A DNA stretch of 64,000 nt from a virus: the IMG/VR virus record IMGVR_UViG_3300027659_000017, positions 1-64,000 of that record. The stretch is one strand, 5' to 3'. The position numbers were made by a program, and so were the translations under genes. The notes below the pieces were generated by a model that was given only the letters and a program-made list of their open reading frames with translations, ran no database searches and was not told the DNA's origin. The first letter of the stretch is position 1. Every line of letters begins with the position of its first letter. Shown here piece after piece: positions 7,738-58,838 of the stretch.

Positions 7738-8106
7738 ATGAAAAATCAGTCAATAAAACCTATTGGTAAATATGAAGTTGGCGGTACCAATGAGGATGAA
7801 TGCATGGAAGTATATACTGATGCAAATGGTAAACCAAAAAAAAGAAGAAAAAAAGGTTGTGGATATGCTGCCTCACAAAGGTATAATAAGAAACAACAAG
7901 GAAAAGCAAAAAGAAGAGAAACAATTGGAAAAGTTGTTGCTGGAGTAGGTGCTGCAGGTGCAGCAACTGCTGCTTATCTTAGTAATATCTTTGGTGTAAA
8001 AGACAAAGTAAAAGCTGCTCTTAACAATAATAAAGTTGGAGGAACCGTAAAAAAGAAAAGTGGAGGTCCTGTTAAAAGAACTCGTACTGCAATCAAAAAG
8101 AAATAA
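7738..8106 (+). CDS. small basic protein with xxxGG tags and one hydrophobic segment
   Basis: K-rich; YEVGG, NKVGG, KKSGG; VVAGVGAAGAATAAYL. Confidence 0.7.
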   Translation: MKNQSIKPIGKYEVGGTNEDECMEVYTDANGKPKKRRKKGCGYAASQRYNKKQQGKAKRRETIGKVVAGVGAAGAATAAYLSNIFGVKDKVKAALNNNKVGGTVKKKSGGPVKRTRTAIKKK

Positions 8107-8124
8107 ATCCACTCAAACTATAGT

Positions 8125-8157
8125 AATCCAGGTATCTTTATTACCTGGATTTTTTTT
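8125..8157 (+). terminator. intrinsic terminator
   Basis: aatccaggta/tacctggatt perfect stem plus T-run. Confidence 0.85.
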
Positions 8158-8160
8158 GTT

Positions 8161-19932: not shown

Positions 19933-20472
19933 ATGAAAGCAAAAACAAAAATGAAAACTGCTAAATATGCAGCAGGAGGTGCAAATGATGATCCTATAAA
20001 GGACTATCTCCAAAAACAAAAGGATAAAAAAAGTAAGATGGGAAGTGATGCTCCTTCTACAACACCAAATCCTAGTAAGTTTGGAACTCCTAAAAAAGAT
20101 AAAAACAATGGATTGGACTATCTTGAGAATGCATCTCAAAATGCTCAGAATGTTAAAAAACCAGGTAAAATTCGTCAGTTGATTGATAAAGTTAAATCTA
20201 ACATGCAACAGAAAAAAACTGAAAAACAAAAGAAACAATTAGCGGCAGGAGTAGGAGCACCCAAAAAGTATGGTACATTACCTCCTCCTCCAATTAAACG
20301 TAAAACAGGTGGTGCGACTATGTACATGACTGGTGGTATGGCTAACTCTAATGCAAAAGTCTTGGCTTCTAAAGTTGCTAAAGGTACTGTTGGTGGTAGT
20401 TCAGTAGCACCTAAAGGGGCTGTTCCTAAAGCTAAGTATGGTACATCTATGAGAGGTAAAAAATCTTGTTAA
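19933..20472 (+). CDS. small basic protein with GG tags
   Basis: K-rich; YAAGG, RKTGG, YMTGG, PKAKYG. Confidence 0.7.
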   Translation: MKAKTKMKTAKYAAGGANDDPIKDYLQKQKDKKSKMGSDAPSTTPNPSKFGTPKKDKNNGLDYLENASQNAQNVKKPGKIRQLIDKVKSNMQQKKTEKQKKQLAAGVGAPKKYGTLPPPPIKRKTGGATMYMTGGMANSNAKVLASKVAKGTVGGSSVAPKGAVPKAKYGTSMRGKKSC

Positions 20473-20473
20473 G

Positions 20474-20812: not shown

Positions 20813-20814
20813 TT

Positions 20815-21096
20815 ATGGCAAAGACAGCAGCATGGACCAGAAAAGAAGGTAAGAACCCTACAGGAGGTCTTAATGCTAAAGGTGTTGCATCTTATAGAGC
20901 AGCTAACCCTGGTAGTAAACTTAAGACAGCTGTAACTACAAAACCATCAAAATTAGATCCTGACAGCAAATCTGCAAAAAGAAGAAAGAGTTTCTGTAGT
21001 AGAATGTCTGGGATGAAAAAGAAACTTACAAGCTCTAAGACAGCTAATGATCCTAACTCAAGGATCAATAAGTCTTTACGAAAGTGGAATTGTTAA
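20815..21096 (+). CDS. basic protein, DUF6321-like
   Basis: AWTRKEGKNP.GGLNAKG..RRKSFC.RM.G..DPNSRINKSLRKWNC. Confidence 0.65.
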   Translation: MAKTAAWTRKEGKNPTGGLNAKGVASYRAANPGSKLKTAVTTKPSKLDPDSKSAKRRKSFCSRMSGMKKKLTSSKTANDPNSRINKSLRKWNC

Positions 21097-21108
21097 AATA
21101 ATATAGTC

Positions 21109-21960
21109 ATGGCAAAATGTATGCAATGTGGTGGAATGAAAAAAGCCAAAGTAGGTACTGTTGTAGATAATGAACCTTCTAAAAGAGAGGTAAGAAAGTC
21201 TATGAGAGCAATTAATAAAATGGACCGTGAAGACAAACGGTGGAACAGAAGATATGAAAAACAACTTGCAAAGGACGAAAGAAAAACTAATAAAATAAAA
21301 GCAGAAGAACTTATGAAATCTGATAGATGGAAAACTGCCGGAACAGGTAAAGCCGTACAAATGAAGAAAGGTGGTATTACACAAGATATTGTTGGTATGC
21401 CTGGTTATAATGCAACTTTGTATCCTACCTCCTTTAAAAGCGGAGGAGTTAAAAAGAAAACAAGTTTGAAAAGAGCTAATGACGGCATGATTGTTAAAAA
21501 TAATAAAGTTATTGATAGATCAAAAATTTCTGTAACAAGAGATGATGGAACTCAAGTTAATGCCAAACTTAAAACTGTTTGGGATAACAAAGGTACAAAG
21601 GAACAGCCCTATATGACTAATCAAAAAAATAAAAGTAGAATAACAGAAATTAGTCCTACAGGTAAAAAAACCACTAAAGTTACTAAAACCAATAGTGATG
21701 GTGAAACAAAAACTAGAAAGGCAATAATTCCTGTTAGGAAAACTGGTGGAGCTAAATTACAAAGACGTGACAATGGAGGACCAAATAAAATTCCTATGAT
21801 TGGATCTGCAAAATCTAAAGCTGACAAAGCTACAATTATGAATCCCGAAAATAAATATGCATTAGGGGGATCAAGTTCTCCAGTTAGCCATGGATGTCCT
21901 CCAGGAACAGCAAGATTATCTAATGGTGGTTGTGGCACAAGAGAAAGATTTGGTGGATAA
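21109..21960 (+). CDS. basic low-complexity protein with ~8 GG/AxxG tags
   Basis: K-rich, modular between tags. Confidence 0.7.
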   Translation: MAKCMQCGGMKKAKVGTVVDNEPSKREVRKSMRAINKMDREDKRWNRRYEKQLAKDERKTNKIKAEELMKSDRWKTAGTGKAVQMKKGGITQDIVGMPGYNATLYPTSFKSGGVKKKTSLKRANDGMIVKNNKVIDRSKISVTRDDGTQVNAKLKTVWDNKGTKEQPYMTNQKNKSRITEISPTGKKTTKVTKTNSDGETKTRKAIIPVRKTGGAKLQRRDNGGPNKIPMIGSAKSKADKATIMNPENKYALGGSSSPVSHGCPPGTARLSNGGCGTRERFGG

Positions 21961-22113: not shown

Positions 22114-22734
22114 ATGAAAACAAATAAAACTAAGAAAGGTCCATTGGGTACACCACTTGGAAACCCATTGGGGTATTTCAATTCTCAAAAAGCAAAGAGA
22201 AATGAACCATTGCAGAAAGCTCGTGATGGTAGAATTCAACAACTAAATGATATGAATCCAAATTATACAATGGATCCATCTAATGGTGCTGCAGTTCCAA
22301 GATCTTTTAATCGTCCTGTAAAAGAAGGACCATTATCTGAAGCAACTGATAATGGAGGTACTACAGATCCCAACAAATATGTAATGAACAAAACCAATGT
22401 TTTTGGAAAGCTCAAGCATAAAGAAATTTCTAAAAATAAATTTGATAGAGTTTCTAAAAGATATGGTAAGCAAGAAGGTTCAGAACAATTTGGTAGCAGT
22501 AATTCTATTGGTCAACAAATCATAAGTGGTAAAAAACCAAATAACTCTGTTAGTAGAGAAGATCAAGTAAGACTTGCTGAATTAGAGAAATTTAAAAATC
22601 CTGGTTCATCATTTAAACAAGGAGGTACTACTAAAGCTGCAAAGTTTGCTGCACTGGCTAAACCATTTGACAAAGCTACAGCTGCTGATAGAATTGCCGG
22701 AGCAAACAAGAAGAAGAATAAAAGAAAAAAATAA
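22114..22734 (+). CDS. basic protein with GG tags
   Basis: LQKARDG, FKQGG; KFAALAKPFDKAT.ADRIAGA tail. Confidence 0.7.
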   Translation: MKTNKTKKGPLGTPLGNPLGYFNSQKAKRNEPLQKARDGRIQQLNDMNPNYTMDPSNGAAVPRSFNRPVKEGPLSEATDNGGTTDPNKYVMNKTNVFGKLKHKEISKNKFDRVSKRYGKQEGSEQFGSSNSIGQQIISGKKPNNSVSREDQVRLAELEKFKNPGSSFKQGGTTKAAKFAALAKPFDKATAADRIAGANKKKNKRKK

Positions 22735-39101: not shown

Positions 39102-42100
39102 TGTATAATAAAAAAGTTCTTATTGATGCTCTCAAAACTCTGGGTACACCTTCTACACCTAAGAAGTATAACTTCAATGATGGAGGTGCAAAAAATACTG
39201 GATTAAATGAGGTACCATACAAACAAGTTAGTGTTAAGCCATCAAATGTTGCAGGTAAAGGTTTGTTTGCAGATGAGCCAATTAAGGCCGGAGAAATAAT
39301 TGGTCTTTCTCATATCAAATCTTTTTATGAAAGAGGTGGTCAGAATTATATGAAGAGTCAAGAGACACCGGTTGTAGGTAAGTATTATAATCACTCTGAT
39401 GATGCATTTAATGCTGGTTCTATTATTGAAGGTAACAAAAGATATTTAAGAGCTCTCAGAGATATTGAAGCTGGAGAAGAGATACTTGGTAATTACCGTG
39501 AAGATGATGATCCTTCATTGGAAAGTCCAGATGATTTTAAGAGAGGTGGTTCTTTACCAAGAATGCCTAGAAAGAAAAACTCCAGAGGGTATTCTAGAAG
39601 TTTAGAAGCTACAAATAAGTTCTTTACTGAAAATGCATTCTTTGCCAAACCTAAGTCAAGAAAGAATAAAGTATATGATCCTAATTCAAAATACTATAGA
39701 AAAGGAGGAGCTTCTTCTCCAGAAGAATGGGAACAAGAAATTAGAGCTATAGAAAGTCAAATAGGAAATCCTAAAAACTGGACTCTAGAGGATCGTAATC
39801 TTTTACAAGATAAACTTAATGCTTATAAAAACTGGAGAGAAACAACTCCAGAAGGACAAGCTGTTAAAGATTCTCATAATGTACCAGGTGAGTATGAGGC
39901 TTTTATACCTGAGCATTTAAACGGAGCTCCTTATAATACATCAGGTCCAAGATACATAGAAGAATCTATGGAACAATATCCTGTTGGTAGTGCACCAAAA
40001 GTATATGGGAATGAGCCGGAAGATTATCAAAGATTTTTAGATTACAATCAAACAGCTCCTGAAAACAGAAGAGGTTATGAAGAGTATAGATATGGAGATC
40101 CAAATTCATATGATCACTATGGTATGTGGGATGCTCTTGGTAAACCAAAAGATTTTCAAGAAGCTCTTCAAATGAATCCTGATTGGACACCAGATGAATA
40201 TGATGGATCATATCATGGATTCAGTGTTAATCCTAACACAGGTGTGTTTCTTAAATCTGGTAAACCTGGATTAAAACCTGGAGATACTACCTGGATGGAA
40301 ATAGCTGGACATTATCTTAGCCCTAGAGCAGATATAGACACACCAGTATTTGATCCAGAGATAGGTAGATTTAAATATGTTCCTAATGAAGAATATATTG
40401 AAACAAAACTTTCACCAGAAGACATAGACAAGTACGTAAAAGGAGGTTATATTGTTGAAGACATTTCTGTACCTAAACTTACTAAAGCTAGAACTGGTTT
40501 AGAAGTTATTAAAACAGCTTTACCTTTTCTTAAAAAAACTGCACCAACTATGTTAGATTTAAAAAATCTTCCAGTTGGTTTTAATCCATCTGAACTTTCA
40601 TTTCCATTATTAATTAATGGTTCAAGTGGTTTTATACATACTGCACCTAACAGAAAACTTAATGATAATCTTTTTCATTTTGCAGCTAGCATGAAAAACC
40701 CATTGGAAGCAGGAAGAGCATTCAATATAATCAATCAAGCTTTTCCGTTTGCCAATCCCTCAATATTAGAACCAGCTAGTTTAAGTCTTGACTCTTTGAA
40801 TCTTTTATTAAACATGGGTCAGAAACGTGATTGGGATATGAGGTATGCTGATCATCATATTCCATTAAACTTCTTTTCTGAACATAATGATTTATTTGGT
40901 GATCTTGGTAGTACTAGAAGTGCACTACATCAAGCAATAGGTTCACAGTCTAAAAAAACTGGTAATGAAATGGTAGATAGACTGAATGCATATCTAAATG
41001 GAAGAGGGATACAACAGAAAGCATATCTACAATCACATGCTCCAGGATTAAGACAAATCATGATTCCTAACTTTCAACTAACTAGAAAATATGCTAAAGG
41101 AGGAACTAAGAATAATCCACCTGTATTAGGATCTTTACTTAAAGCTGTTACAAGATCTAACTATAATCCATTAAGTATACCTATTAAGTTAGCTGGTGAA
41201 AAAATTGCTAGAATAGGTCCTTTACCTTATAGAACAAAAGATGAAATAATAAAAAGTTTAACAGGTAAAATGGAACCGGCTTATTTTGGGCAAACTGGTA
41301 TTTATGGTTCAGATTCATCATTATTTTGGAATGACCCAGATGGTCCATTAATGAAGGATATATATGGTCTAGGTAAAAGAGATTTAATAGCTAACTATTT
41401 TAGAGGTATTGATACAGGATTCAAACCAATTGAATATGACTTTAATAATGATCCTGGTCTACAAGCTGCCATAAAACAGTATGGTCCTTTAAAAGCTTAT
41501 GAACTTTTATCTCAACAAGCTCATGGTGAACCATTAGAAGATGGTCGTATTGGTTATGCATTACGTGTGCATAATGATGCTATGAAAAAGTATGGTTTTG
41601 ATCCAGCTTTGTTTATTAAATATAATGATTGGGACTTTCATAAATTTAATCCTCTTGGATCTCCAGAATTTATAAAACAAAGTTATCATGATTTGTTTGA
41701 TAGATATGGACAAGAAACTATTCCAATTGAAATTCAATCTGATGCTTCAAAAGGAAATCCTGAATTTATGATGGCAGGCAATCCAGTAACTCCAGCAGAT
41801 AATATTGGAGGTCATATGGGTTTCTTACAAAGAACACCTGAGGAAGAATTTAATTTTACCACAAGAGATTTGTGGGGATTCAGACCAGAAGCATACAATA
41901 GCAAATGGAATATGGATACCAAAATGAAACAAGGCCAAACACAATTGATGGATGCTTTTGGTAAACCCTTTGTTCTTACACAGACTAATCCTATTCAATT
42001 TAACACATATAAGAACTTTAAGAAGAAGTTCTTTAAGAAGGGTGGTGCTAAGACTAATCCACCACTTCTTGGTAATATGGCTAAGGCTATACAAAGAGGA

Positions 42101-44968
42101 TACAGCCCTAACTTAGTAAAGTCAATATTTGAGTTAAGTCAGAATGGTCAGAACTTGCAAGCATTAAATTATCTAAAAAATAATTACCTACGAAATATGG
42201 GTTCTTTAATGGATCTACCTGGAGCTGTGCAAGGTTCTACATTAGACTTACCACAACTTAATGCACAACAGATAGAAGCATTACTGCATCAGAAACCTAT
42301 GTTAGAAAGTGATTTTCTAACTCAATACAGTGGGTATAATCCTATACAATATGATGGAGGTTTACCAATTGTTACTGGGGGATTGACAGGTCATAAAACT
42401 TCATTCCAAAACTTTGACAGAAACTTTAGAGGAACAGGTTTTGGTAATCAAACGGGTGGTGTATATTTTACTACACAACCAACTGTTGCTGCTGAGAATG
42501 CTCAAATTAGTAGTATGGGTGGCTATGGATTTAATCCTAATACACCAACATTTACACCTCATATTTCAGAAGCTATATTTAAAAATCCTGATAAATTTTT
42601 ACAGTATAATGCACCCATAACAGAAGAATTGGCTAAATCTATTGGAATGATTAATGGCATAGATCCAAGAAATAGTGACACATTAGGACAGCTTGAAATT
42701 GATCTGAGAAAAAGTTTTTCAAAAACTGATGATTATAGTGATTATGATTTTGCTATGAAATCAGCTGCTGATGCTTTAAGAGAAAAAGGAATTGCAGGTT
42801 ATTTTGATCCAAGTGGTCGTATCCAAGAAATAGTGGCTTTTGATGAAGGTGATGTAAATAAAATAAAACAGTTTGAACTTTACAAAGATCTTGATGATGC
42901 TTTGATTATGGGATATCTGAAAGCAATTTCTAAAACTCCATCAACACAAACTGATGCAGAGAAAAAATTGGTTGCTGCATTTGAAGAGTATCTGAAAACT
43001 GGTAACAAACAACAACTAATAGATAGAAAGAAAGGTGGTGCACTACCACCATCTCTATTGAAGACTCTCAAAGGAGTTAGTAAATTGACTCCAGGTAATG
43101 CTTTAAGATCTACATTGTACTCTGCTGTTAATCCAGCTAGTTATAACATTCTAAAAAAAATAAAGGCTGCACCTCTTGAGCTATACAATAACATGATGTA
43201 CAATGATACTCGTCCCTTTAGAGTAGGTATGAGTTTAAAACATGGGGCTCCTGAATTAAGAGACAACATGTTAGAACATGTTCGTATGGATTTAAACCAG
43301 TGGAATAAAACTTCATTGGCAGATCAAATGGCTGCAATAAAAAATGCATATGGTAGCAAGCATTTGAACACATTAGAAGATATTGGAAGAAGAAGATTAG
43401 ATTCCTGGGCTGTAGGTTTGAAAAGACCACAGGAGCATAATACTTTAGAACAAGTGGGTGACAATACATTTAGAATGGTTGACACAGAATATACTCCTAT
43501 GTACTTAAATGAACTTTACAATGATCTATTAGCTACAAAAATTGAATCTGATCCTATGGCCAACGGCTTTGGTTCTGTTGTTGATGATGGACAATTCAGT
43601 CCACTAGAACAACTTAGTAGAGATCAGTTTAGAGTTAAGACACAATATTTTGCTTCTAATCCAGCAACAGTTCCGTACAGATTATCAGAAAAAGATAAGA
43701 TAGGATATCCAAATTGGAATAGAACAAGACATGCACAAGTTGATCCTATGGGTCTTTTATCTAAGATGACTACAGGTACGGTATATGACAATGACCGTTA
43801 TGGAGTAATGGGTGGTTACAATTGGAAAATTAATGAACATCCAGAAGGAATGGTTTTTCAAACCAATGACCTATGGGATTTAAATCCGTTTGAAAAAAGA
43901 ATAGATCCTATGTTAAATACTGATGCTCTTAAAAATAAGTATCTAAACATGCACTATTACAAACCATTCCAAAACTTTGAAGCACTTCGTGCAGTGGGTG
44001 GTAAACCATTTAACATACAGAACAATTTCTTGGTAGATCCTGATTCATTTAATGTACTAAGACAATGGGCAGAAGGTGGACCATTAAAAGGGGGTCCAGA
44101 AGAACCTATAACAGATTGTCCAGAAGGCTACACATATGATCCAGATAAATTGGGTTGTGTACCAATGTCAAGTGATGTACAAGATCCTGCTCAACAACAT
44201 ATTTCCAACTGGTGGATGAATAGAGAAATAAAATGGCCTGAGAATAATAAAGATTATCAAAACAATATGGAACAGATTCTTCCTACATCAAATCCAAATT
44301 CTCCTGTTATAGAGCAATTAAACAATTGGCCGGGTTATGTTTATACTGATAATTTACCAAGACCAGATGCTGGAGGTACATATGACACTTCAAAAAAAGA
44401 ACCAAGAATATTTGTAAGGAAAAGTTTTAGTCCTGAAATGAGATTGCAAACTGAAATACATGAAGGAACTTCACATGCCAATGCTCCAGTAGCAGATCAA
44501 TTATTTGATATGCATAATAGGATTATGAAACAAAATCTTATTCCAATAAATAAAGATTGGTCACCAGCACAAAAAGATTTTTACAATTATGTGACAGCAC
44601 CAGATGAAGATAACTACCACTCTTATCTTATGAATGCCAGAAAGATATTTAATGTAGATCCTAAACAAGTTGTAACTGAATCTGATATAAATAAATGGAG
44701 ACAACAAGCTGAAGAAAGTGGAATGATGGATAGAGAGAGTCCTAACTTTAATGAAGAGATTTACATTTTATTTAAATTCGCAAAAGATCCAGCATCATTG
44801 ACCAATATATTTAATTACATGGCAGAAAATAAAAATGAATCTGCTGAAGAAGGTCCACAGTATACTAAAGATGGTGGTAGTATTGACTACGAATTAGGTG
44901 ACACAGTAGATAAAGCTACTATGGAAAAATTAAAAGAATTAGGTTATACCTTTGAACAAATTAAGTGA
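39101..44968 (+). CDS. giant modular protein A, putative virion cargo (SET, ART-like, zincin-like, 2 x unknown domain)
   Basis: 1955 aa; modules separated by xKxGG tags. Confidence 0.7.
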   Translation: MYNKKVLIDALKTLGTPSTPKKYNFNDGGAKNTGLNEVPYKQVSVKPSNVAGKGLFADEPIKAGEIIGLSHIKSFYERGGQNYMKSQETPVVGKYYNHSDDAFNAGSIIEGNKRYLRALRDIEAGEEILGNYREDDDPSLESPDDFKRGGSLPRMPRKKNSRGYSRSLEATNKFFTENAFFAKPKSRKNKVYDPNSKYYRKGGASSPEEWEQEIRAIESQIGNPKNWTLEDRNLLQDKLNAYKNWRETTPEGQAVKDSHNVPGEYEAFIPEHLNGAPYNTSGPRYIEESMEQYPVGSAPKVYGNEPEDYQRFLDYNQTAPENRRGYEEYRYGDPNSYDHYGMWDALGKPKDFQEALQMNPDWTPDEYDGSYHGFSVNPNTGVFLKSGKPGLKPGDTTWMEIAGHYLSPRADIDTPVFDPEIGRFKYVPNEEYIETKLSPEDIDKYVKGGYIVEDISVPKLTKARTGLEVIKTALPFLKKTAPTMLDLKNLPVGFNPSELSFPLLINGSSGFIHTAPNRKLNDNLFHFAASMKNPLEAGRAFNIINQAFPFANPSILEPASLSLDSLNLLLNMGQKRDWDMRYADHHIPLNFFSEHNDLFGDLGSTRSALHQAIGSQSKKTGNEMVDRLNAYLNGRGIQQKAYLQSHAPGLRQIMIPNFQLTRKYAKGGTKNNPPVLGSLLKAVTRSNYNPLSIPIKLAGEKIARIGPLPYRTKDEIIKSLTGKMEPAYFGQTGIYGSDSSLFWNDPDGPLMKDIYGLGKRDLIANYFRGIDTGFKPIEYDFNNDPGLQAAIKQYGPLKAYELLSQQAHGEPLEDGRIGYALRVHNDAMKKYGFDPALFIKYNDWDFHKFNPLGSPEFIKQSYHDLFDRYGQETIPIEIQSDASKGNPEFMMAGNPVTPADNIGGHMGFLQRTPEEEFNFTTRDLWGFRPEAYNSKWNMDTKMKQGQTQLMDAFGKPFVLTQTNPIQFNTYKNFKKKFFKKGGAKTNPPLLGNMAKAIQRGYSPNLVKSIFELSQNGQNLQALNYLKNNYLRNMGSLMDLPGAVQGSTLDLPQLNAQQIEALLHQKPMLESDFLTQYSGYNPIQYDGGLPIVTGGLTGHKTSFQNFDRNFRGTGFGNQTGGVYFTTQPTVAAENAQISSMGGYGFNPNTPTFTPHISEAIFKNPDKFLQYNAPITEELAKSIGMINGIDPRNSDTLGQLEIDLRKSFSKTDDYSDYDFAMKSAADALREKGIAGYFDPSGRIQEIVAFDEGDVNKIKQFELYKDLDDALIMGYLKAISKTPSTQTDAEKKLVAAFEEYLKTGNKQQLIDRKKGGALPPSLLKTLKGVSKLTPGNALRSTLYSAVNPASYNILKKIKAAPLELYNNMMYNDTRPFRVGMSLKHGAPELRDNMLEHVRMDLNQWNKTSLADQMAAIKNAYGSKHLNTLEDIGRRRLDSWAVGLKRPQEHNTLEQVGDNTFRMVDTEYTPMYLNELYNDLLATKIESDPMANGFGSVVDDGQFSPLEQLSRDQFRVKTQYFASNPATVPYRLSEKDKIGYPNWNRTRHAQVDPMGLLSKMTTGTVYDNDRYGVMGGYNWKINEHPEGMVFQTNDLWDLNPFEKRIDPMLNTDALKNKYLNMHYYKPFQNFEALRAVGGKPFNIQNNFLVDPDSFNVLRQWAEGGPLKGGPEEPITDCPEGYTYDPDKLGCVPMSSDVQDPAQQHISNWWMNREIKWPENNKDYQNNMEQILPTSNPNSPVIEQLNNWPGYVYTDNLPRPDAGGTYDTSKKEPRIFVRKSFSPEMRLQTEIHEGTSHANAPVADQLFDMHNRIMKQNLIPINKDWSPAQKDFYNYVTAPDEDNYHSYLMNARKIFNVDPKQVVTESDINKWRQQAEESGMMDRESPNFNEEIYILFKFAKDPASLTNIFNYMAENKNESAEEGPQYTKDGGSIDYELGDTVDKATMEKLKELGYTFEQIK

Positions 44969-47900
44969 TGGCAAAATATAGAATAACAAGTATTCCTCAA
45001 TCATTACCACAAGCTCGTAAAGGAGGGTCATTAAAGTACAAGAAAGCAAAATCTGGTAAATTAAAAAATTTCTTCTTTGGTAATGAAGGTGATTATGATA
45101 ATATTGCCATGGATATGTTCAATACGGATATGATGAATGGATCTCCTAGAACTGCTGCCGGTAATCAACCTATGGTAGAAGTAGAAGGTGCACCACAACC
45201 ATCATACTGGAATATGCAGCAAGGATGTCCTCCTGGAAAATTCTCTTACAATGGTCAATGTTTTACAGAAGCCGAGTATGTAGAGTATTCTAAAAGAGAA
45301 ATGGAAGAGTACGAAAGAAGTATGAACCAGAAGAAAGCTGCTAGTCAACAAAGATTTGAAGGTATAGTTCAAGAAAACCAACAACGAGCACAAGAACAAA
45401 GTACTAGGTTAAATCAAGAAGAAACTGAAAGATACTATACTAATTTCAAAAACTCAAAGAAGTCTGATAAGATAGATCCATACATGTCCATTCCTAATTT
45501 GAATATGGATAGAATGGTGGATATGGTTGATCCAGAAGGTAATCCTGTTTTAGGGGAGGATGGTAAGCCACAGCAAGAAACTTTAGGAGATCAATTAAAG
45601 AAATCTTTTCTTATTAACGTTACAGAGAATGGATATACACAACTGTATCCAAAAGATATTGTCCATGACAGAATCGTTAAGCATGGTTTTCAAGCCGATC
45701 AGTTTAAGAATATCTGGGGATTAGATCCTAAACAAGTTAAAGAACAACTTGGAGATATAATGAAACTGGCTGATGAACAGTACACTAATACTGTTTTGAA
45801 CAAGGTTGCTAAAACTGCTATAGAAGAAGGTAAGTCACCGGAAGAAGTAATCAAATCTTTACCTACATCATGGGGAGGAAGTGAATTGACTAAATATATT
45901 AAGCCATCTCAAGAAGAGGTTGATAAAATCTATTCTGAATTTGTTAAACAAAGTTTAGAAGGTCTTCAAAAACAAATAGGTGTTAAGGAAGAGGATGGAA
46001 TGCTGCGGTATGACAGAAGTAAAAAAGCAGATAAACCAAAACTTGATTTTGATTTTGAAAGTGATATCTATTTAAATGCATATGATGATGATGGTACTTT
46101 AACAGCACAAGAAGTAGATCCTGTAAAAGCATATGCTCAGAAGTGGATAGCTTCAGGAAAGACTGCTAAAGAAAGATATGAAAGACAAATGCAAGTTGAT
46201 GCTATCAACCGTAAAGATTATTCAAAAACATATGATGAAGCAGTTAAAAATGATAAAACATTTAAAGAAACATTTAATATAGATGATATTAATTTAAATG
46301 CATCCGGAGAGGATATAAATAATATGCCTCCTTCAGATAGAATGCAAACACTTAAACTTAATGAGACACGTAGACTTAATGAGATCAATCAAAGCAATTC
46401 TGAGAGAGCTGAAGAAAATATAGGAGATAATGCTGTACAAACTAAACGTACTGAAGATTTAATAAAACTTACAGGTTTTACAGATGACTTTAATAAATTT
46501 ATGCAAGAACGGCAACGTTTAACTATGTATGGTGTATATAAAAATGCATTAACAGATTCAGGAATATCCTATGCAGATAAAGCTAAAGTTCTACAACATC
46601 TCAATGACAACAAAGGTGACTTAGCATATAACTATTTGTTTGACAGAAGCCGTGATGCTTCTGATCCCTTATCACAAAATAATTATAATTCTGAACTAGG
46701 TAGCTTAATGGGTGGAGAAGGTTATGGAAATCTTTTGACACAGCCAAAAATTCAACAAGGAAAAGCTCCAGGTGCCGATATTGGTGTAGGTGCTAAAACA
46801 TGGGATGTCTTAACCAATTGGGGTGATGCTGCTTATCATGGATTAAATGCTTTTATAGGTAATAAAGATTTTAGTGATAACATGTGGAGTATTCCAGGTA
46901 AATCTTTAAATGAAGTAAAAGCTGATGAAGAAAGATTAGGTATAGATCTAAGAGGTAACGATCAATTTAATGCTTCACTTGTACCTGAACTTTTAAATAA
47001 GTTAAATCCTTTGCATGCAGTAGATGAAATCTATAGAGGTTATAAAAGAAATGGACTTAAAGGAGCTTCATCTAAAGCAAGTAAAGCAGCATGGGATGCT
47101 ACTGAAACTGCAGCAATGTTTATTCCAGGGGGTCAAGGAATTAAATTACTACGTCAAGCATCTCTATTAAACAATACTCTAAATAAAGGTAGTCTATTAA
47201 ATAAAATTTCTAAAGGTTTTAATGGACTACAAAGAGGAATTAATAGTCTAGGTTTGCCTGGACAATATGTAACAAACTACTTTAACAAAAGTCTACCAGC
47301 ATTTGCTTTTGATGCAGTAAGACCATATGGTGAATTTCATGAAGGTTTTGAAAATTTAACAGAAGGAAAAACAACAGAAGGTTTAAAAAACTTGGGATGG
47401 GGAACACTTGGTATAACTCCATATATAAGTAAAATACCACGTATTGAATACCAAACTCCATCAGGTAGAACATTTGGTATTGGTAATACAGGAACAACTT
47501 GGACTACTGCACAAAATGAAAAACAATTTGCAGACTTAATGAAATCTAGTACACTTGATGATTTAAAAAAAGTTTATTCAGAAGAAAATCAAATTGCAGA
47601 AGCTGAACAAGCACTTAATAATGGAACAGCATTTCCAAATTATACATTTACACATCCGTTAAAAAGACAAGCTCAACTTTCTGATGATTTTCAAAATATG
47701 ACTAATCAAGAATTTGCTTTCAAAAATTTAGGATTTGCTCCAAAACCAGGAGGACCTTTTCAACTTGGAACTTTCAATAGCCCATTAAAATATTCAGGAA
47801 AACTCGGACAGTTACAATTTGGTACAGGAAAATTTTTTCCAGCTAAACTTCAGGGAATAGAATACAGACCTAATATACAGTATGATACTGCACCTATGAC

Positions 47901-50900
47901 TATTGGTTTTAGAAATGGAGGTTCTATTCCTAAAGCTAATGTAGGTATGATTGTTAGTGGACTGCAAAGTTTAGGTAACCCTACAAAGATGAAAACTGGT
48001 GGAGCATTACCACCACCTAACTTAGGTAAGATAGTAAAGGTAGCAAACAGTTTAGCAATTCCTACAAAACAGATGGTAAAGTCGTTACCAAGTATGGGTA
48101 ATCAACCTGGTTTAGAATGGTTACAAAGGTGGTATTCAAGTCCAGAGTTAGCAACAAGAATTTCAAACACTATTGATCCATCTTCTGCTTTTGATCTTAA
48201 AAAACATAGTGTTTCTTTAGAAAAGTTAATGGCAGCACAGCCTAAAACATATTCTCAATTAGCAGCAAAAAACGGTTTACTACAAACTATTCCTTATTAT
48301 ATAGGGACAGGTGGTTTGTACTCAGGTGGTAATTTATATATCAATCGTCTTTTATCTAAAGCAAATCAAGAGTCTTTTACAGCTCATGAAGGAACTCATT
48401 TATATGATGATCCAAGACATGCTGTAACCCAACCAACGGTAACACAAGAATGGATAGGACCTGATGGACAGAGAAGAGTTCAATTTGATGAAAATTCACT
48501 TGTCCAAGATGATTATCATTTAGATGCAAATGGAAGACCTACCTTTTTTAATCAAAAAGAAACCGAAATGTTATTAAAACCTTTTGGTCTTTCTAAACCT
48601 CCTTTGTATCCAAACAAAATGGATCTTTTTGGTAATGATTATTTTAGAAGATACTATACACATCCAGATGAAATTCATGCTAGAATGAACCAAGGTAGAT
48701 TTATGCTTAATAAATCTCCAGAAGATCCTTTTACATTAGATGATTTTAATAAAGTACAAACTTTAGAGGACTGGTTTGGAATGGGTAAACATATAACAGA
48801 TAAAAATGCTTTTCTGGATTTGATGAATAAATTCTATGGAGTTGTCCCTGCTGCAATAGTAGGTTCTCAACTACTAGATGAAGACACAGAACAAAGAAAA
48901 AAAGGAGGATCTACACCAAAAGCTAAAGCAAATCCACCAAGAGTATTGGGAAGAACAGTTCAAAGTATTAGTAGTATGTTGAAACCTACTTCTCAATTTA
49001 GAACTACCATGAATGCATTAGAAAATTTTGGAAGTACTTTACCTACAAATATGTCTCTTTTGAATTCAGTTGCTAAACCATTCCAAGGTATTAATAATCC
49101 TGTCATGGATTTAAATGTACAAGGCTTACTGAAGTCTCCAACTGATTTGGGTGGTACAGGAATAATAGGTTATGGAGATGACATACATAAAGGTGATCCA
49201 TGGTATCAAATAGATCCTGCAGATTATGGAGGAAGTGAGACATGGAGACAAGAAGGAAGAACTGATGCTGAAGGATCTATAGAAAGATATCTTGGTAATC
49301 TAAAACCATATGGACCGGATGCATTTAATAATATAGGAAACTTTGATTTTGAGATAGGATCAGATGGATGGAAAGCAAGAAATGCAATGATGGGAATGGC
49401 CAGTCCACTGTACCAACCTCAGAAAACTCTAGGCACAGGAGATTTTTATACATTTGATGAGTTCAGTAATTTAGTTCAAAAACAAACACAGTATTTAAAT
49501 GATAGAGCTGCTTTTGATGAAATGTATCCTGAAGACCCAGGTATGAGAATGTGGAATGCTTTACGTGGTGATACACAAAGAGATGAAATGTTTGCTAATT
49601 TATTTCCCAATTCTGGTATACAAAACTTTAAACAAAAGTTTTATACTCCAGAACTTTTAGATCTTATGAAAAAAACAGATCGAGATGAAAAAGGTAGAAA
49701 TTTATATGATCAATTGGTAAGTAATACAAACATGGGTGATAATAAAATGTTAAACATGAGGTCTTTAAATAGTGTAACAAAAGGAGAAGATACTTTACCT
49801 TCTACATACAAAGACTTAGTTGAGTACTTAAAACCTGATAGTTATTTATATACGGCTCCAGCTAAAGAGGTTGTTGGTGAAATGAGAGGAAGTCTTGGAC
49901 TAAAATTAGAAGACATTAATAATGCTACACCAGAGCAACTTGAAAAATGGAAACAAGAAATTATTAAAAAAATGTATGAACAAGCTAAAGAAAGATGGGA
50001 CAAAGATTCAACTATTCCTTTATCTGGTTATGATGCATATGAAAAATTCTTTAGTAGGTCAGGTTCTAAGAATAAACTTGGAGGAGCTATACCAAAAGCA
50101 CGACTGGGGTTAAGTGTAATTGGAAAGAATGTAAATAACATAGAAAACATTCTTAATGGTACAGCTAAATCAACAAATCTATTAAGACTAGTTGATAGAG
50201 CTATTACTCCGGTTGGTTATGGAATAGTTGGAAAAATGTTAGCATCTCCATTTACTTATATTAAACCTTATGTGCCGCAAACTTATGGTCTTAAGAATAG
50301 ATATGATGCATGGAATCTATATAATCAAATACAACCAAAATATGGAGGCCTGAGTCTTAATGAAGATGGTACAGTTGCGGTAAAAAACTTTGATATTTCA
50401 AAACCTATATTAGATCAAATAAGAAATTCAGAAAGAAACTCTTTTGAAACTGAAGAATTCAATAAGATGAATGGACATTTGGCAATTAACTTTGGTGGTG
50501 TTCATGGAAATGGTCTTGTAGCTAAAGGAGTTGATGATACTGGAAGACAGTATATGGATTTTACTGATACATGGGATTTACACCCTTTACAAAGATTTGG
50601 TAATTTGTTACCCAAGCCAATAAGAAATATTGAAGTTGGTCAAGTAACAGGTGGTAAACCTTTTGATCTTCGTAATAGAATTTACTTTGATGGAGAAGGA
50701 AATTATTTTAATCAAGATGGTACTCCATTAATTACATATAGTAAAGAAGTACCAGGATTTGACTATACAAATGGAGCATTACAGGTACAGCAAAATGCAT
50801 CAACAAGAAATATAAAAGAAATTGAATTACCAGATAATAAAAATGTTGAGTTTGTTGCAAGTTCAGGTGTACCTGAAAATGAATTTCAACAAGTAAATGA

Positions 50901-51219
50901 AGAATTTAATGATGCTTATCACCAGTCTAATTTAAACAAATTAGCTACAATAGGTATTGGTTTGGGAATAGGTGGTATTAATTCATTTATTGATTATCAA
51001 AATAACAAACCTATGCTAATGATTGATGTAAGAACTGGTAAGGTTGTTACTGTTACAAAAGCTGAGATGGAAGCAAACCCAGGTAGATACATTAGTACCA
51101 AAAATCTAAAACGTGGTGGTGCTATTTCCAAAAAGAAAACAGGTGGTGTAGTAACTGAGCTCACTAAAAAAGAAATAGAGCAATATGTTAAAGATGGCTA
51201 TATCATTGAAGATTACTAA
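44968..51219 (+). CDS. giant modular protein B, putative virion cargo (hydrophobic region, HExxH zincin, unknown domains)
   Basis: ATG 44968 overlaps previous TGA; HEGTH; GG tags. Confidence 0.7.
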   Translation: MAKYRITSIPQSLPQARKGGSLKYKKAKSGKLKNFFFGNEGDYDNIAMDMFNTDMMNGSPRTAAGNQPMVEVEGAPQPSYWNMQQGCPPGKFSYNGQCFTEAEYVEYSKREMEEYERSMNQKKAASQQRFEGIVQENQQRAQEQSTRLNQEETERYYTNFKNSKKSDKIDPYMSIPNLNMDRMVDMVDPEGNPVLGEDGKPQQETLGDQLKKSFLINVTENGYTQLYPKDIVHDRIVKHGFQADQFKNIWGLDPKQVKEQLGDIMKLADEQYTNTVLNKVAKTAIEEGKSPEEVIKSLPTSWGGSELTKYIKPSQEEVDKIYSEFVKQSLEGLQKQIGVKEEDGMLRYDRSKKADKPKLDFDFESDIYLNAYDDDGTLTAQEVDPVKAYAQKWIASGKTAKERYERQMQVDAINRKDYSKTYDEAVKNDKTFKETFNIDDINLNASGEDINNMPPSDRMQTLKLNETRRLNEINQSNSERAEENIGDNAVQTKRTEDLIKLTGFTDDFNKFMQERQRLTMYGVYKNALTDSGISYADKAKVLQHLNDNKGDLAYNYLFDRSRDASDPLSQNNYNSELGSLMGGEGYGNLLTQPKIQQGKAPGADIGVGAKTWDVLTNWGDAAYHGLNAFIGNKDFSDNMWSIPGKSLNEVKADEERLGIDLRGNDQFNASLVPELLNKLNPLHAVDEIYRGYKRNGLKGASSKASKAAWDATETAAMFIPGGQGIKLLRQASLLNNTLNKGSLLNKISKGFNGLQRGINSLGLPGQYVTNYFNKSLPAFAFDAVRPYGEFHEGFENLTEGKTTEGLKNLGWGTLGITPYISKIPRIEYQTPSGRTFGIGNTGTTWTTAQNEKQFADLMKSSTLDDLKKVYSEENQIAEAEQALNNGTAFPNYTFTHPLKRQAQLSDDFQNMTNQEFAFKNLGFAPKPGGPFQLGTFNSPLKYSGKLGQLQFGTGKFFPAKLQGIEYRPNIQYDTAPMTIGFRNGGSIPKANVGMIVSGLQSLGNPTKMKTGGALPPPNLGKIVKVANSLAIPTKQMVKSLPSMGNQPGLEWLQRWYSSPELATRISNTIDPSSAFDLKKHSVSLEKLMAAQPKTYSQLAAKNGLLQTIPYYIGTGGLYSGGNLYINRLLSKANQESFTAHEGTHLYDDPRHAVTQPTVTQEWIGPDGQRRVQFDENSLVQDDYHLDANGRPTFFNQKETEMLLKPFGLSKPPLYPNKMDLFGNDYFRRYYTHPDEIHARMNQGRFMLNKSPEDPFTLDDFNKVQTLEDWFGMGKHITDKNAFLDLMNKFYGVVPAAIVGSQLLDEDTEQRKKGGSTPKAKANPPRVLGRTVQSISSMLKPTSQFRTTMNALENFGSTLPTNMSLLNSVAKPFQGINNPVMDLNVQGLLKSPTDLGGTGIIGYGDDIHKGDPWYQIDPADYGGSETWRQEGRTDAEGSIERYLGNLKPYGPDAFNNIGNFDFEIGSDGWKARNAMMGMASPLYQPQKTLGTGDFYTFDEFSNLVQKQTQYLNDRAAFDEMYPEDPGMRMWNALRGDTQRDEMFANLFPNSGIQNFKQKFYTPELLDLMKKTDRDEKGRNLYDQLVSNTNMGDNKMLNMRSLNSVTKGEDTLPSTYKDLVEYLKPDSYLYTAPAKEVVGEMRGSLGLKLEDINNATPEQLEKWKQEIIKKMYEQAKERWDKDSTIPLSGYDAYEKFFSRSGSKNKLGGAIPKARLGLSVIGKNVNNIENILNGTAKSTNLLRLVDRAITPVGYGIVGKMLASPFTYIKPYVPQTYGLKNRYDAWNLYNQIQPKYGGLSLNEDGTVAVKNFDISKPILDQIRNSERNSFETEEFNKMNGHLAINFGGVHGNGLVAKGVDDTGRQYMDFTDTWDLHPLQRFGNLLPKPIRNIEVGQVTGGKPFDLRNRIYFDGEGNYFNQDGTPLITYSKEVPGFDYTNGALQVQQNASTRNIKEIELPDNKNVEFVASSGVPENEFQQVNEEFNDAYHQSNLNKLATIGIGLGIGGINSFIDYQNNKPMLMIDVRTGKVVTVTKAEMEANPGRYISTKNLKRGGAISKKKTGGVVTELTKKEIEQYVKDGYIIEDY

Positions 51220-51260
51220 ACTTTATAAGTTTATCCATTAAATTAAATTTTAGTATATTT
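51217..51260 (+). promoter_or_regulatory. TAAAC-N7-GTTTA palindrome plus TTTAGTATATTT promoter motif
   Basis: palindrome 51217-51233 in intergenic gap. Confidence 0.55.
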
Positions 51261-51276
51261 ATATATATAAGAAAAT

Positions 51277-55386: not shown

Positions 55387-55394
55387 GCAAACCA

Positions 55395-58300
55395 ATGATA
55401 AAAGTTAGAATTAAAAAATTGCCGAAGGCAAAAACAGGATACCAACTTCAAGGAGCTTTGGTTAATGATGTTCCTGCAATGGGAGGAGCAGATTACAATG
55501 CATACATTGGTAAAGAAAAACTTAGAGAGAGTAAATATATTACTGCTGTTCCAAGAGATAAAGCTAATCTAGAGGCTGAGGGAGGTGAAACTGTTTACGG
55601 TGACATCAATGGAGATGGAATGCCGGAACATAAAATCATCAAAGGACCAAGACACCATGCTGGTGGAGTACCACTAAGTCTTCCTGAAGATACATTTATC
55701 TTTAGTGATACAAGAAGTATGAGAGTTAAGGACCCGACAATACTTGCTATGTTTGGTAAGTCTCCTGGTAAGTCTTATACCCCAGCTGAATTGGCTAAAC
55801 AATATGATATCCAGAAGTACAGAAAGATTTTAGAAGATCCTGATACAGATGCAATAGAAAGAAAGTCTGCTGAGTTGATGATCAAAAAGTATGTTATTAA
55901 GTTAGGATGTCTTGCTCTTGCACAAGAGTCAATGAAAGGATTCCCACAAGGGATTCCTGTTGTTGCTAAACCATGTATGGAAGCAAGAGGTATTACAGAA
56001 GAACAAATCTTGCCAAGTAAAGAAATCTCTGGTTTGAATGATCAGCTGAAGAAACAAATGGAGCAGCAACAGAATTCTGAAGAGACAATGGAATCAGAGA
56101 ATCAGCAGAATCCTATGGAAGAAGCTCAGGAGATGAACCAAGGTCAACCAGTAGCTCAAGCACAACAAAGTCCATCACCAGAAGCAATGATGAGATTTGG
56201 TGGTATGAGAAGATTGAGAAGAGCTGCAGAAGGAATGATGCAACCATCTCCAGAAGAGATGGCTATGATGCAACAACAACAGCAACAACCACAACAAGGT
56301 GGGGGTGATGAGATGATGCAAATCATGCAAGAGGTTCAGGCTGCACTACAAAGAGGTGCACAACCTAATGAAGTTGTTATGAGTTTATTACAGAATGGTC
56401 TTCCACCTGAAGCTATAGTACAGATATTTACACAACTTGGTGCTTCACAAGAAGAGGCTGTGGGTATTATCCAACAAGCTATGTCTCAACAACAAGGTGG
56501 TGGAGAAGATCCAATGATGGCTCAAGGTCCTCCAATGTCTGAGCAAGAAATGATGCAGCAACAAGGAGCTCCAATGGCAATGTATGGTATGTCTATGGGA
56601 GGGTATGATATGCCTTTCTATGATATTCCACAAGCTGAGTATGGTATGGCAATGGGTGCTAACCCACAAAACTATCAAGGAAGACAAGGTAGAGTACCTT
56701 CTACAGGTCCTATGTACAATTTAGCTAAAGCACAAAATGGTGTAGAAACACCTGCACCAATTGTCATTGATGGTACTGCAATGACTGATGCACAAATTGA
56801 ACAAGAAATTTGGAACATTAAACAAAAAGACCCAAATGCTGTAGTACATGTTAAACGTAAGGATGAAAAAGGAAATGTTAAAACACAAGTATTAAAACAA
56901 TCTGGTTTTACAGTTCCTACTGGAAAAGATCTTGATGCTGCTGGTTTAGAGGGGTTCCCTGATACACCAAATGGTAGAATGGCAGCTGCACAGTATTTAT
57001 TGATTAAAGAAAATATGTCTAACCCAGCGGTTAGAAAAGAAATGATTGCTAATACAAGATCAGTTGTTGAAAATCCAGAAGCTTGGAGAGGAAAAGGTTC
57101 AACAAGTGCCGATCCAAATGATAAATGGTCTGTTAAATACGGTACTGAACCAACTGATGAGGAAATCATTAATGCTTCTTTGATGTTAAATAAAAGAAAC
57201 TTGATGTTCCAAGCAAATGATGTGGATCCTCAATTGTTTTCTGACGTAGGTAATAAATTAGATGACCCAGCTACTGTAGTTAGTGAAGGTTATATAAATC
57301 CTAAAACACAAAAACCTTATACTACAACAGAGGCAACAGCTGCTATTAATGATTTAAGAAGTAAAGGTTTTACAAGTGTAGCCACAATGGCACAAAATCT
57401 TGGAGTTCCATTGGATCCAAGAGGTAAAGACAGAGTACTTCAACAATCTACAATGCATGCTTATGCACTTTCACATAAAAACTTTAGTGAAGGTAAATAT
57501 GATAACGACCCTAATACAAAGTATGCAATGGATAACTTCTTGGGTAATGTTAATCAAGTACAATCCGGAGCTGGTGATGAATCTACTATGGGAGGTTTAT
57601 ATGGTGCATTAGGTAATAAGATTTCACCTCTTGATGACGAGTATGATTATTCAAATAACAATTGGTATCAAACAAATTCAAGAGGTAGTCTTCAAAGAGG
57701 TAAATATACAACTTGGGGTGATACTCAAGCTGGTGAATACTTTATGGTAGGTAAAAGAAGTCAAGTTTATGACGATTTACCAGCAGATCCAAACTGTCAA
57801 TGTGAAGATCAAAGTAAACCTAACTATAGTACATACAAAGATGACAAAGGAAACTGTACATGTACACCACCTACTGAAGTAAAGAATTGTCCTTGTGTTA
57901 AATCAGATGGTACTGAGATAAACATGACACCTAATCCGGATAATACATGTCCTCCTTGTACTGAAGATAAGCAAGTTCCAGTTCCTAAACCTCCTGCTGA
58001 GTTTTGGTTGCAAGATACAATCAAGACTGCTGGTGCATTTGGGGATTTGATGGGTGTTAAAAAATACATGGGATGGTCACCGGGAATGGATTACAAAAAT
58101 CCACGACCTACATTCTTAGATCCTACAAGAGAACTTGCTGCCAATTCAGAACAAGCAGGTATTCAATCTCAAGCATTAGGTCAATTTGCTGGGTCACAAG
58201 CATTGTCTGCAAGATCAGCAGGTATTCAAGGTCAAGCTGGCAAGAATGCTGCAGATATACTTTCTAAGTATAACAATGCTAATGTCAACATAGCAAATCA

Positions 58301-58838
58301 ATTTGAGTTAAAAGGTACTGATATTGCAAACCAAAACACTGCATTAAGACAAGCAAATGCTTCTAAACTTTATGACCAGAATACTATTGCAAATCAGCAG
58401 TTTGATAATTCTAAGTTGGCATTGAGAAACAACTTGAGAAACTACTATACTAATGCTATTACTAATAAATGGAAGACAGATGCATTAAATCAAATGTATC
58501 CTAACTATGCAGTAAGACCTGGTAATGGTGGTGAGATGGGATTCCAACCAACACCAAGATCAGTAACTGGTCAAGGAGCTGGTAGTACTACAGGTAGTTG
58601 GCAAAAAGCAATGGATGAATGTAAAGCAAACAACCCTGGAGCAAGTGAAGCAGTATTGTTAGCTTGTGCTAAATCTTCAACAGGTTCATATGGTTCACAA
58701 CCAAGTACAGGAGCTAATGCAAATGCTGTCAATACAATGTATGGTTCTCAACAACCTCAACGTGAAAGAGATGGAGGAGAAATATATGATGATGGTGGTT
58801 ATGTTCACATTAACTCATGGCTTCCATTTATCTTGTAA
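55395..58838 (+). CDS. giant protein D (EAEGGE..GPRH..GG..IFSD domain; M/Q-rich region; A/N/Q coiled coil), putative virion cargo
   Basis: 1147 aa; N-terminal motif recalled from Bacteroidota phage virion proteins. Confidence 0.65.
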   Translation: MIKVRIKKLPKAKTGYQLQGALVNDVPAMGGADYNAYIGKEKLRESKYITAVPRDKANLEAEGGETVYGDINGDGMPEHKIIKGPRHHAGGVPLSLPEDTFIFSDTRSMRVKDPTILAMFGKSPGKSYTPAELAKQYDIQKYRKILEDPDTDAIERKSAELMIKKYVIKLGCLALAQESMKGFPQGIPVVAKPCMEARGITEEQILPSKEISGLNDQLKKQMEQQQNSEETMESENQQNPMEEAQEMNQGQPVAQAQQSPSPEAMMRFGGMRRLRRAAEGMMQPSPEEMAMMQQQQQQPQQGGGDEMMQIMQEVQAALQRGAQPNEVVMSLLQNGLPPEAIVQIFTQLGASQEEAVGIIQQAMSQQQGGGEDPMMAQGPPMSEQEMMQQQGAPMAMYGMSMGGYDMPFYDIPQAEYGMAMGANPQNYQGRQGRVPSTGPMYNLAKAQNGVETPAPIVIDGTAMTDAQIEQEIWNIKQKDPNAVVHVKRKDEKGNVKTQVLKQSGFTVPTGKDLDAAGLEGFPDTPNGRMAAAQYLLIKENMSNPAVRKEMIANTRSVVENPEAWRGKGSTSADPNDKWSVKYGTEPTDEEIINASLMLNKRNLMFQANDVDPQLFSDVGNKLDDPATVVSEGYINPKTQKPYTTTEATAAINDLRSKGFTSVATMAQNLGVPLDPRGKDRVLQQSTMHAYALSHKNFSEGKYDNDPNTKYAMDNFLGNVNQVQSGAGDESTMGGLYGALGNKISPLDDEYDYSNNNWYQTNSRGSLQRGKYTTWGDTQAGEYFMVGKRSQVYDDLPADPNCQCEDQSKPNYSTYKDDKGNCTCTPPTEVKNCPCVKSDGTEINMTPNPDNTCPPCTEDKQVPVPKPPAEFWLQDTIKTAGAFGDLMGVKKYMGWSPGMDYKNPRPTFLDPTRELAANSEQAGIQSQALGQFAGSQALSARSAGIQGQAGKNAADILSKYNNANVNIANQFELKGTDIANQNTALRQANASKLYDQNTIANQQFDNSKLALRNNLRNYYTNAITNKWKTDALNQMYPNYAVRPGNGGEMGFQPTPRSVTGQGAGSTTGSWQKAMDECKANNPGASEAVLLACAKSSTGSYGSQPSTGANANAVNTMYGSQQPQRERDGGEIYDDGGYVHINSWLPFIL

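Follow-up and report, generated by a model that had tools for sequence, protein, structure and literature searches.

The window analysed here, a stretch of 64,000 nucleotides at the start of a contig of 97,955 bp (IMG/VR record IMGVR_UViG_3300027659_000017), belongs to an uncultured, deep-branching crAss-like phage, and its variable proteins carry a short recurrent peptide, hereafter the tag, that in its main form ends in Gly-Gly. The tag is one motif, selected at the level of the peptide, and it lies at module boundaries and protein ends; genes of related phages are split and fused at it, and in the crassvirus PhicrAss001 three tags run uninterrupted through a structurally modelled segment of the cargo protein gp45 (cargo protein C1). 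We tentatively propose that C1-type crassvirus cargo uses the tag as its standard joint, which would serve both as an uncut hinge and as a docking handle; of the readings considered we find this one the most likely, though it falls short of probable. Proteins of the window phage are named below by the first position of their genes.

A single peptide recurs in two gene blocks

The original prediction had described about 50 copies of two patterns, [FYMR]-[KAR]-x-G-G and [LI]-x-[KQR]-A-x-x-G-[MLI], on eight otherwise unrelated proteins, and had read them as a signal for protease release or for the loading of cargo into the virion. All of the examples quoted there are present at the genes named, and both patterns are in clear excess over shuffled controls, the comparison that had been named as a possible refutation: the first occurs at 22 sites in the window versus 3.1 +/- 1.7 expected (2000 per-protein shuffles, maximum 11), and the second at 8 sites versus 0.32 (maximum 4). 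Across the entire 98-kb genome the counts are 24 and 8, whereas shuffles that move residues only within blocks of 10 give 4.4 and 0.6; because the excess persists under this block shuffling, the order of residues is non-random and local composition is not sufficient to account for it. The figure of about 50 copies is fair under the looser patterns x[KARQ]xGG and [KQR]AxxG, which together match 63 times within the eight proteins, or 0.86 per 100 aa, and 26 times elsewhere, or 0.11 per 100 aa, an eight-fold difference in density, but not under the strict ones. Strict matches are confined to seven proteins (19933, 21109, 22114, 39101, 44965, 51277 and 55395); the eighth, 7738, is a marginal member, its YEVGG and KKSGG both missing the stated pattern. 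The terminase, portal, tail genes, 58895 and 62089, where the original prediction had described the patterns as largely absent, contain no strict match, and neither do the major capsid protein (MCP), the 1814-aa muzzle protein with its 12 GG doublets, 69599 or 80472.

The motif had been defined on the window itself and was therefore checked on other sequences. Eighty-nine homologues, which had played no part in its definition, hold 143 sites versus 18.2 +/- 4.0 expected, and in 39101 the residues G150, G202, G448 and G466 are invariant across six phages while the flanking linkers diverge and carry indels. Codon choice at identical tag residues is at expectation for this genome in terms of same-codon use; there being no conservation at the DNA level, selection therefore acts on the peptide, and DNA-level recombination linkers can be rejected within this genome. 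Paralogy is likewise rejected as the source of the tag, a BLAST comparison among the eight proteins giving just two short matches. In that sense the proteins are indeed unrelated, but all of them belong to two hypervariable gene blocks: behind the capsid gene lies a block encoding small and very basic proteins, and behind the muzzle gene one encoding large modular proteins.

The tag and its mini-module form a joint

When tandem modules are compared, the two predicted variants prove to be the same motif, aligned in the same register, (S)-V-P-x-L-(T/N)-(K/Q)-[Y/F/A/M]-x-x-G-[G/M], in which the Ala of K-A-x-x-G takes the position of Phe, Tyr or Met in the G-G form. The tag often flanks a mini-module of about 35 residues (strand, helix, G-G turn, strand) that runs from G-G through a short alternating strand to L-T-P-E-E-I-x-x-Y-(R/K)-x-G-G and Y-I-V-E-(E/D)-(I/L), followed by the stop codon in the many proteins that it ends; the most common tag is the turn within this conserved module. 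The gene that follows a module-ended one often begins with a leader, M-x-K-V-R-I-K-K-L-P-K-A-x-x-G-(G/M). Termini at the joints were compared among the window proteins and relatives from seven viral contigs, and both halves occur in fused form within 39101 (aa 423-467), as they do in many relatives, with the cassette of 39101 being orthologous in L001, L003, L005 and L007; a hidden Markov model of the module scores such internal copies far above the shuffle maximum.

The arrangement is widespread. Thirty-nine of the 89 homologues end in the module, and each of the 43 internal copies among them is followed by S-(V/I)-P-x-L-(T/N)-(K/R)-(A/F)-x-x-G-G. A profile search of 1.84 billion representatives returned 915 matches at E <= 1e-3, mostly with 2-5 copies each, the matches being protein clusters under 50% identical to one another. 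The module is the terminal element in 112 of 145 independent proteins retrieved, and the 223 internal modules in these 145 proteins have GG at fixed offsets downstream, with a K-A box following 30% of them versus 2.6% at random positions (12 times). The claim that tags sit at protein ends stands for C-termini (63 versus 30 expected) and fails for N-termini in the large set (12 versus 25). Natural C-termini fall past the second strand of the module rather than at G-G.

The mini-module family has no match in Pfam and no sequence match in the PDB. In AlphaFold2 (AF2) models the conserved domain before the joint is predicted with a predicted local distance difference test (pLDDT) score above 90, the short helix of the joint at about 62 and the residues after G-G below 50; in a natural 130-aa protein consisting of two tandem modules, the helices reach pLDDT 77-86 with no tertiary packing (predicted template modelling score 0.25). 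In these models the joint elements look conditionally ordered, as would be expected if they became ordered on a partner.

Gene boundaries shift at the joints

Relatives whose MCPs are 85-93% identical to that of the window phage have cargo proteins only 31-52% identical over the alignable part, and the partition of this cargo into genes varies among them (801+938+1769, 972+1274+1392, 1339+1602+735 aa, and so on) while its gene order is kept. In L001 a single protein of 1769 aa stands in place of 51277 and 55395, with only a GG doublet and a P-K-G-R-T-G box at the point of fusion, to which the split forms add a C-terminal module and an N-terminal leader. Judged from such alignments, gene boundaries shift between close relatives exactly at the tag joints.

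The block behind the capsid gene varies among relatives as well. There, after a conserved protein of 338 aa, lie small proteins with 22-30% Lys+Arg (window 19933-22734; L022-L026), studded with (M/Y)-(K/Q/A)-x-G-G and closing in a P-K-A box, whose number and size differ between phages with MCPs 85-93% identical.

Tagged proteins occupy the cargo position

The head and tail genes follow the order terminase (10864), portal (13075), scaffold-like protein (15912), MCP (17196) and tail genes, after which come ring protein 2 (31994), ring protein 1 (32656) and the muzzle (33657), recognized by matches to Pfam families PF25702, PF24228 and PF25731, respectively. Next is 39101, the first of four large proteins downstream of the muzzle (39101, 44965, 51277 and 55395) that together comprise 6555 aa; beyond them lie the conserved protein 58895 and three giants of 2502, 3623 and 2113 aa (62089, 69599 and 80472). 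The portal is 33.5% identical at best to that of any cultured phage, no cultured relative was found by tblastn of the conserved domain described below against 50,697 phage records, and the tagged proteins have no match in PHROGs. Fpv1 and phi17:2 have the muzzle in common with the window phage and lack the tag.

Homologues of the large tagged proteins combine, in changing sets, SET, ART-PolyVal, Kinase-PolyVal, LysM, YkuD, SLT, glucosaminidase, VanY and lysozyme domains, sets that by their sequence are hallmarks of polyvalent packaged proteins (PMC5512222) and of ejected proteins that breach the cell wall. By analogy, the tagged proteins of the window phage are most likely packaged in the virion. 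In 39101 itself a SET-domain lysine methyltransferase (PF00856, 30 bits; aa 52-132, window 39254-39496) replaces a G-Q-W-K-Y-P-G...I-T-M-x-G-V domain found at that place in most relatives; L007 and several database homologues also have SET. As tags are kept in relatives without SET, the idea that they are SET substrates was rejected. Within the first cargo gene, conservation is highest in a domain (39101 aa 300-430, about 39998-40390) marked by the motifs Y-D-H-Y-G-M-W-D and Y-H-G-F-S-V-N-P-N-T-G, which belongs to no Pfam family and has no structural relative (Foldseek E > 0.6; best VIA Z 3.4).

The closest counterpart with a structure is gp45 of PhicrAss001, whose gene lies directly after the muzzle gene, the same position as window 39101-55395. 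It has 20 GG doublets in 842 aa, and every other PhicrAss001 protein is GG-poor, the packaged gp46, gp47, gp49 and gp50 included; since gp45 alone is GG-dense and these packaged proteins are untagged, the tag belongs to C1-type cargo and is not a general packaging address. The same follows for the window phage from the untagged 58895, 62089, 69599 and 80472, so that a general cargo-addressing code is not supported; what survives of the predicted signal is a single peptide under selection, shared by proteins at the genome positions of virion-internal cargo and located where modules meet or proteins end. In the published structure, gp45 residues 425-552 have clear density as one segment, which interdigitates with the portal wing loops (PMC10172136). 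Both segments resolved by cryo-EM are bracketed by tags: residues 214-245, the tail-barrel helix, lie between tags at 206-210 and 260-264, and residues 425-552 between tags at 424-428 and 559-563. By our numbering, three tags (424-428, modelled from residue 425, 431-435 and 444-448) fall inside this continuous portal-bound segment, which means that the mature virion contains them in an uncut, ordered state.

No peptidase family found to follow the tag

Pfam scans covered the larger open reading frames of the window and most of the remaining genome, which is estimated to be 82% complete. S78, C5 (PF00770), C39 (PF03412) and JAB (PF14464) peptidases were found neither there nor in two near-complete relatives; the S78 search had working controls, and the S77 search ran without a positive control. 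Pfam showed no peptidase domain in the four tagged giants, and in 59 relatives the cell-wall enzyme VanY was the only one; the slot between the portal and MCP genes is filled by the scaffold-like protein 15912. The sole peptidase-like candidate is a DUF2201 metallopeptidase-VWA protein beside a MoxR-like AAA gene (genome 94002-96394, minus strand; L016:13603-15995), located in a replication-side module outside the window. This pair is kept in two relatives and missing from the untagged Fpv1 and phi17:2 and from the tagged PhicrAss001; DUF2201 thus does not follow the tag and was rejected as its protease.

In PhicrAss001, gp76-gp77 (L027:46395-48793) comprise a ThiF/E1-like protein (59.6 bits) adjoining a JAB-like one (23 bits, H-x-H-x7-S-x-x-D), by sequence a crassvirus pair for activation and deconjugation of the ubiquitin type. 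The JAB-like gp77 bears no relation to DUF2201. The window clade has no JAB-like and no ThiF-like gene. As DUF2201 is missing from PhicrAss001 and JAB/ThiF from the window clade, no peptidase family follows the tag.

Proposed role of the joint and alternative explanations

Under the hinge-and-handle proposal, an anchor peptide of about 12 residues would end in a Gly-Gly hinge, (S)-V-P-x-L-(T/N)-(K/Q)-[Y/F/A/M]-x-x-G-G, and would often be paired with a conditionally ordered mini-module. The joint would stay uncut, at least in part, and would split long cargo chains into beads that fold, unfold and thread the portal and tail singly, while the tags would act as short handles, taking on order at the particle's inner surfaces such as the portal wing and the tail barrel. 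Because every module would end in the same joint, exchange of modules, and their fusion or division between genes, would do no harm, and an interchangeable joint of this kind would explain a hypervariable cargo block on a conserved chassis.

Several observations weigh against this proposal, and some of them point instead to tags as cutting sites of a maturation or post-injection protease, which would cut after G-G, freeing the modules and chopping the small basic proteins into short peptides. The motif profile is asymmetric, conserved from -9 to the second Gly with nothing conserved downstream, as is typical of leader-type cleavage signals, and tags occur at module boundaries and natural gene ends, with short basic N-terminal leaders ending in them. 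In L022 the entire sequence of 20815 makes up the C-terminal half of a protein of 180 aa, beginning two residues past M-K-S-G-G, and 21109 has G-G as its C-terminus. Precedents exist in T4 gp21, with its capsid-targeting sequences, and in the prohead proteases of phiKZ and SPN3US; processing of polyvalent proteins was predicted earlier (PMC5512222), and the JAB-like protein of PhicrAss001 adjoins a ThiF/E1-like one. We also fingerprinted anew the matrix-assisted laser desorption/ionization (MALDI) peak lists of the 2018 PhicrAss001 bands, about 58 to >300 kDa, from sodium dodecyl sulfate (SDS) polyacrylamide gel electrophoresis (PMC6235969 supplement). Bands 3-9 were assigned to gp50+gp47, gp49+gp44, portal, gp26+gp22, gp22+gp25, gp25 and gp23, and peptides of gp45 (90.7 kDa) never exceeded shuffled expectation, even beside the 12-copy portal; the bands being mixed, this is a weak result, though one compatible with partial processing of gp45, for which the predicted fragments from tag to tag are 19 kDa or smaller. 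(Bands 1-2, at >300 kDa, fit gp44 and gp34 best, which suggests aggregates that resist SDS.) Also counting against the hinge-and-handle proposal, jackhmmer with gp45 detects no homology to the window proteins, and PF25725 (crAss_CARG1) is unmatched in them at E 0.01. Cleavage of at least some tags is a serious rival, but it seems to us somewhat unlikely. No co-occurring protease emerged from the searches above, the hydrophobic residues of the motif stand at P5, P8 and P11 rather than at the P4 expected of the adenovirus-like site that the original prediction had invoked, and the three tags in gp45 are continuous in the model of the mature virion. The position of natural C-termini beyond the second strand also argues against it, as does the location of the commonest tag, where a cut would destroy the module.

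Two other accounts strip the tag of its docking role or transfer that role to neighbouring cargo. Tags might be passive flexible spacers with no recognition role, spread by copying or recombination of modules together with their linkers; the cargo block is highly recombinogenic and the joints are predicted to be flexible. We regard this as very unlikely, given that an 11-residue pattern upstream is kept over the 915 divergent clusters, that the glycines are invariant amid diverging flanks, that the eight proteins show no detectable paralogy, that codon choice does not mark the copies as recent DNA duplicates, and that two unrelated gene blocks have this box in common. Alternatively, each C-terminal module might bind the N-terminal leader of the next protein, so that separate proteins act as one chain and leave in order. 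This would fit the C-terminal module plus M-x-K-V-R-I-K-K-L leader at split junctions, the retention of only two short boxes in the fused orthologue, and the kept gene order among relatives. Such coupling is nonetheless highly unlikely in our judgement: the 43 internal modules of the 89 homologues have no such leader downstream, the 145 representatives hold 223 internal modules, and tandem modules did not pack together in AF2. A predicted complex of the 51277 C-terminus with the 55395 N-terminus scored 0.14, which is informative neither way. A more ambitious version of docking would make the tag a positional code, its anchors binding specific 12-fold surfaces (the tail rings, the portal wing) or the next cargo chain, such that exchangeable effector modules would form a train of megadalton size, to be loaded, kept partly unfolded in storage and ejected in fixed order; we consider this unlikely.

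Features and neighbouring genes

The positions of the tagged proteins, their joints and the untagged proteins that bound the cargo block are collected in Table 1. Outside this block, a lysis pair consisting of a holin (PF05105) and an N-acetylmuramoyl-L-alanine amidase (PF01510) lies upstream of the head module at 5820-7578. The three tag-free giants after 58895 (genome 62089-86813, with 62089-63999 inside the window) are presumably the virion RNA polymerase set; Pfam matches only DUF7831, in the second of them, and LysM, in the third.

Table 1. Tagged proteins, joints and bounding genes, in window coordinates.
Feature	Position	Strand	Remarks
Marginal member, basic, 122 aa	7738..8106	+	three GG, none strict
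Small basic protein, 22% K+R	19933..20472	+	YAAGG, RKTGG, C-terminal V-P-K-A-K-Y-G box
Small basic protein	20815..21096	+	C-terminal half of a longer protein in L022
Small basic protein	21109..21960	+	four GG tags, one K-A-x-x-G-M box, C-terminus R-F-G-G
Small basic protein	22114..22734	+	FKQGG, N-terminal Q-K-A-R-D-G box
Muzzle protein, 1814 aa	33657..39101	+	PF25731 crAss_MUZ, E 5e-19; opens cargo block; 12 GG, no tag
Tagged modular cargo-position protein 1, 1955 aa	39101..44968	+	SET, conserved domain, junction cassette, tag-led modules, C-terminal mini-module
Fused junction cassette in 39101	40367..40501	+	mini-module aa 423-455 (51 bits), then L-T-K-A-R-T-G-L aa 460-467
YAKGG tag heading Pro-Pro / L-G amphipathic helix	41090..41104	+	codon choice at expectation
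Further tags heading Pro-Pro / L-G amphipathic helix	42032-42046, 43025-43039, 47989-48003, 48895-48909		
C-terminal mini-module of 39101	44858..44962	+	29.5 bits; protein end immediately after
Tagged modular cargo-position protein 2, 2084 aa	44965..51219	+	
N-terminal leader of 44965	44965..45030	+	closes in L-P-Q-A-R-K-G-G
Minimal joint	47908..47949	+	FRNGG directly followed by I-P-K-A-N-V-G-M
Joints like FRNGG/I-P-K-A-N-V-G-M	50089-50112, 56190-56237, 21433-21489		
C-terminal mini-module of 44965	51103..51216	+	40.7 bits
Tagged modular cargo-position protein 3, 1369 aa	51277..55386	+	
Leader of 51277, aa 1-33	51277-51375		closes in L-K-K-A-A-M-G-M
C-terminal mini-module of 51277	55270-55383		40.1 bits
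Tagged modular cargo-position protein 4, 1147 aa	55395..58838	+	fused to 51277-like protein in L001 and L003
Leader of 55395, aa 1-16	55395-55442		M-I-K-V-R-I-K-K-L-P-K-A-K-T-G-Y
Conserved tag-free protein, end of variable cargo block	58895..62083	+	

Relation to known systems and significance

Short peptides that mark or release proteins are known from several systems. The sites of the T4 gp21 and phiKZ/SPN3US prohead proteases end in Glu, their cleavage is demonstrated and a dedicated protease is encoded in the head module; the tag resembles these and the T4 capsid-targeting sequences as a short recurring peptide that would mark head-internal, ejected proteins, and differs from them in ending in Gly-Gly and in having no prohead protease found with it. 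Adenovirus protease recognizes the consensus (M/L/I)-x-G-G-x, and the double-glycine leaders of bacteriocins are cut by C39 peptidases. These share with the tag a Gly-Gly after periodic hydrophobic residues and a specificity that lies upstream only; the hydrophobic residues stand at P4 for adenain and at -4, -7 and -12 in C39 leaders, whereas the tag has them at P5, P8 and P11 and is accompanied by no C5 or C39 peptidase. Encapsulin cargo-loading peptides are usually single, C-terminal and shell-binding; like the tag they are short, Gly-containing peptides that would tether cargo inside an HK97-fold shell or portal, but the tags are multiple and internal, and their sole structural example, in gp45, contacts the portal.

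Polyvalent proteins (Iyer et al. 2017, PMC5512222) are large packaged proteins of the same multi-domain type, with swappable effector and cell-wall enzyme domains; they are predicted to be processed by embedded zincin-like peptidase domains, of which the window giants have none. That paper does not use the word 'linker', and no description of a conserved joint peptide was found in it. Gp45 (PMC10172136; PDB 7QOG and others) resembles the window proteins in its place after the muzzle, its density of [hydrophobic]-x-x-G-G and its basic N-terminal leader ending in a tag; it differs in lacking the strand-helix-strand mini-module (best 1.5 bits) and in being one protein of 842 aa, whereas the window clade has four, of 6555 aa, with enzyme domains. 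The PhicrAss001 cargo paper (PMC10172136) does not mention the tag. No published description of the tag or of the junction cassette was found, nor any paper on cargo cleavage in Crassvirales.

Crassviruses, which rank with the most abundant of known phages, load and eject several megadaltons of protein by a mechanism yet to be worked out. One joint peptide, present in more than 900 protein clusters and in the only structurally solved crassvirus cargo protein, offers a mutable handle on cargo loading, and it explains how a variable cargo block can ride on a nearly constant particle. If the tags are cut, a Gly-Gly-specific protease remains to be found; if they form a positional code, phages would have in them an equivalent of encapsulin cargo-loading peptides, and adding a tag could in principle send any protein into the host cell. 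If their role is docking, they would offer a means of loading foreign proteins into phage particles. The joint also defines module boundaries by which thousands of unannotated giant phage proteins may be annotated.

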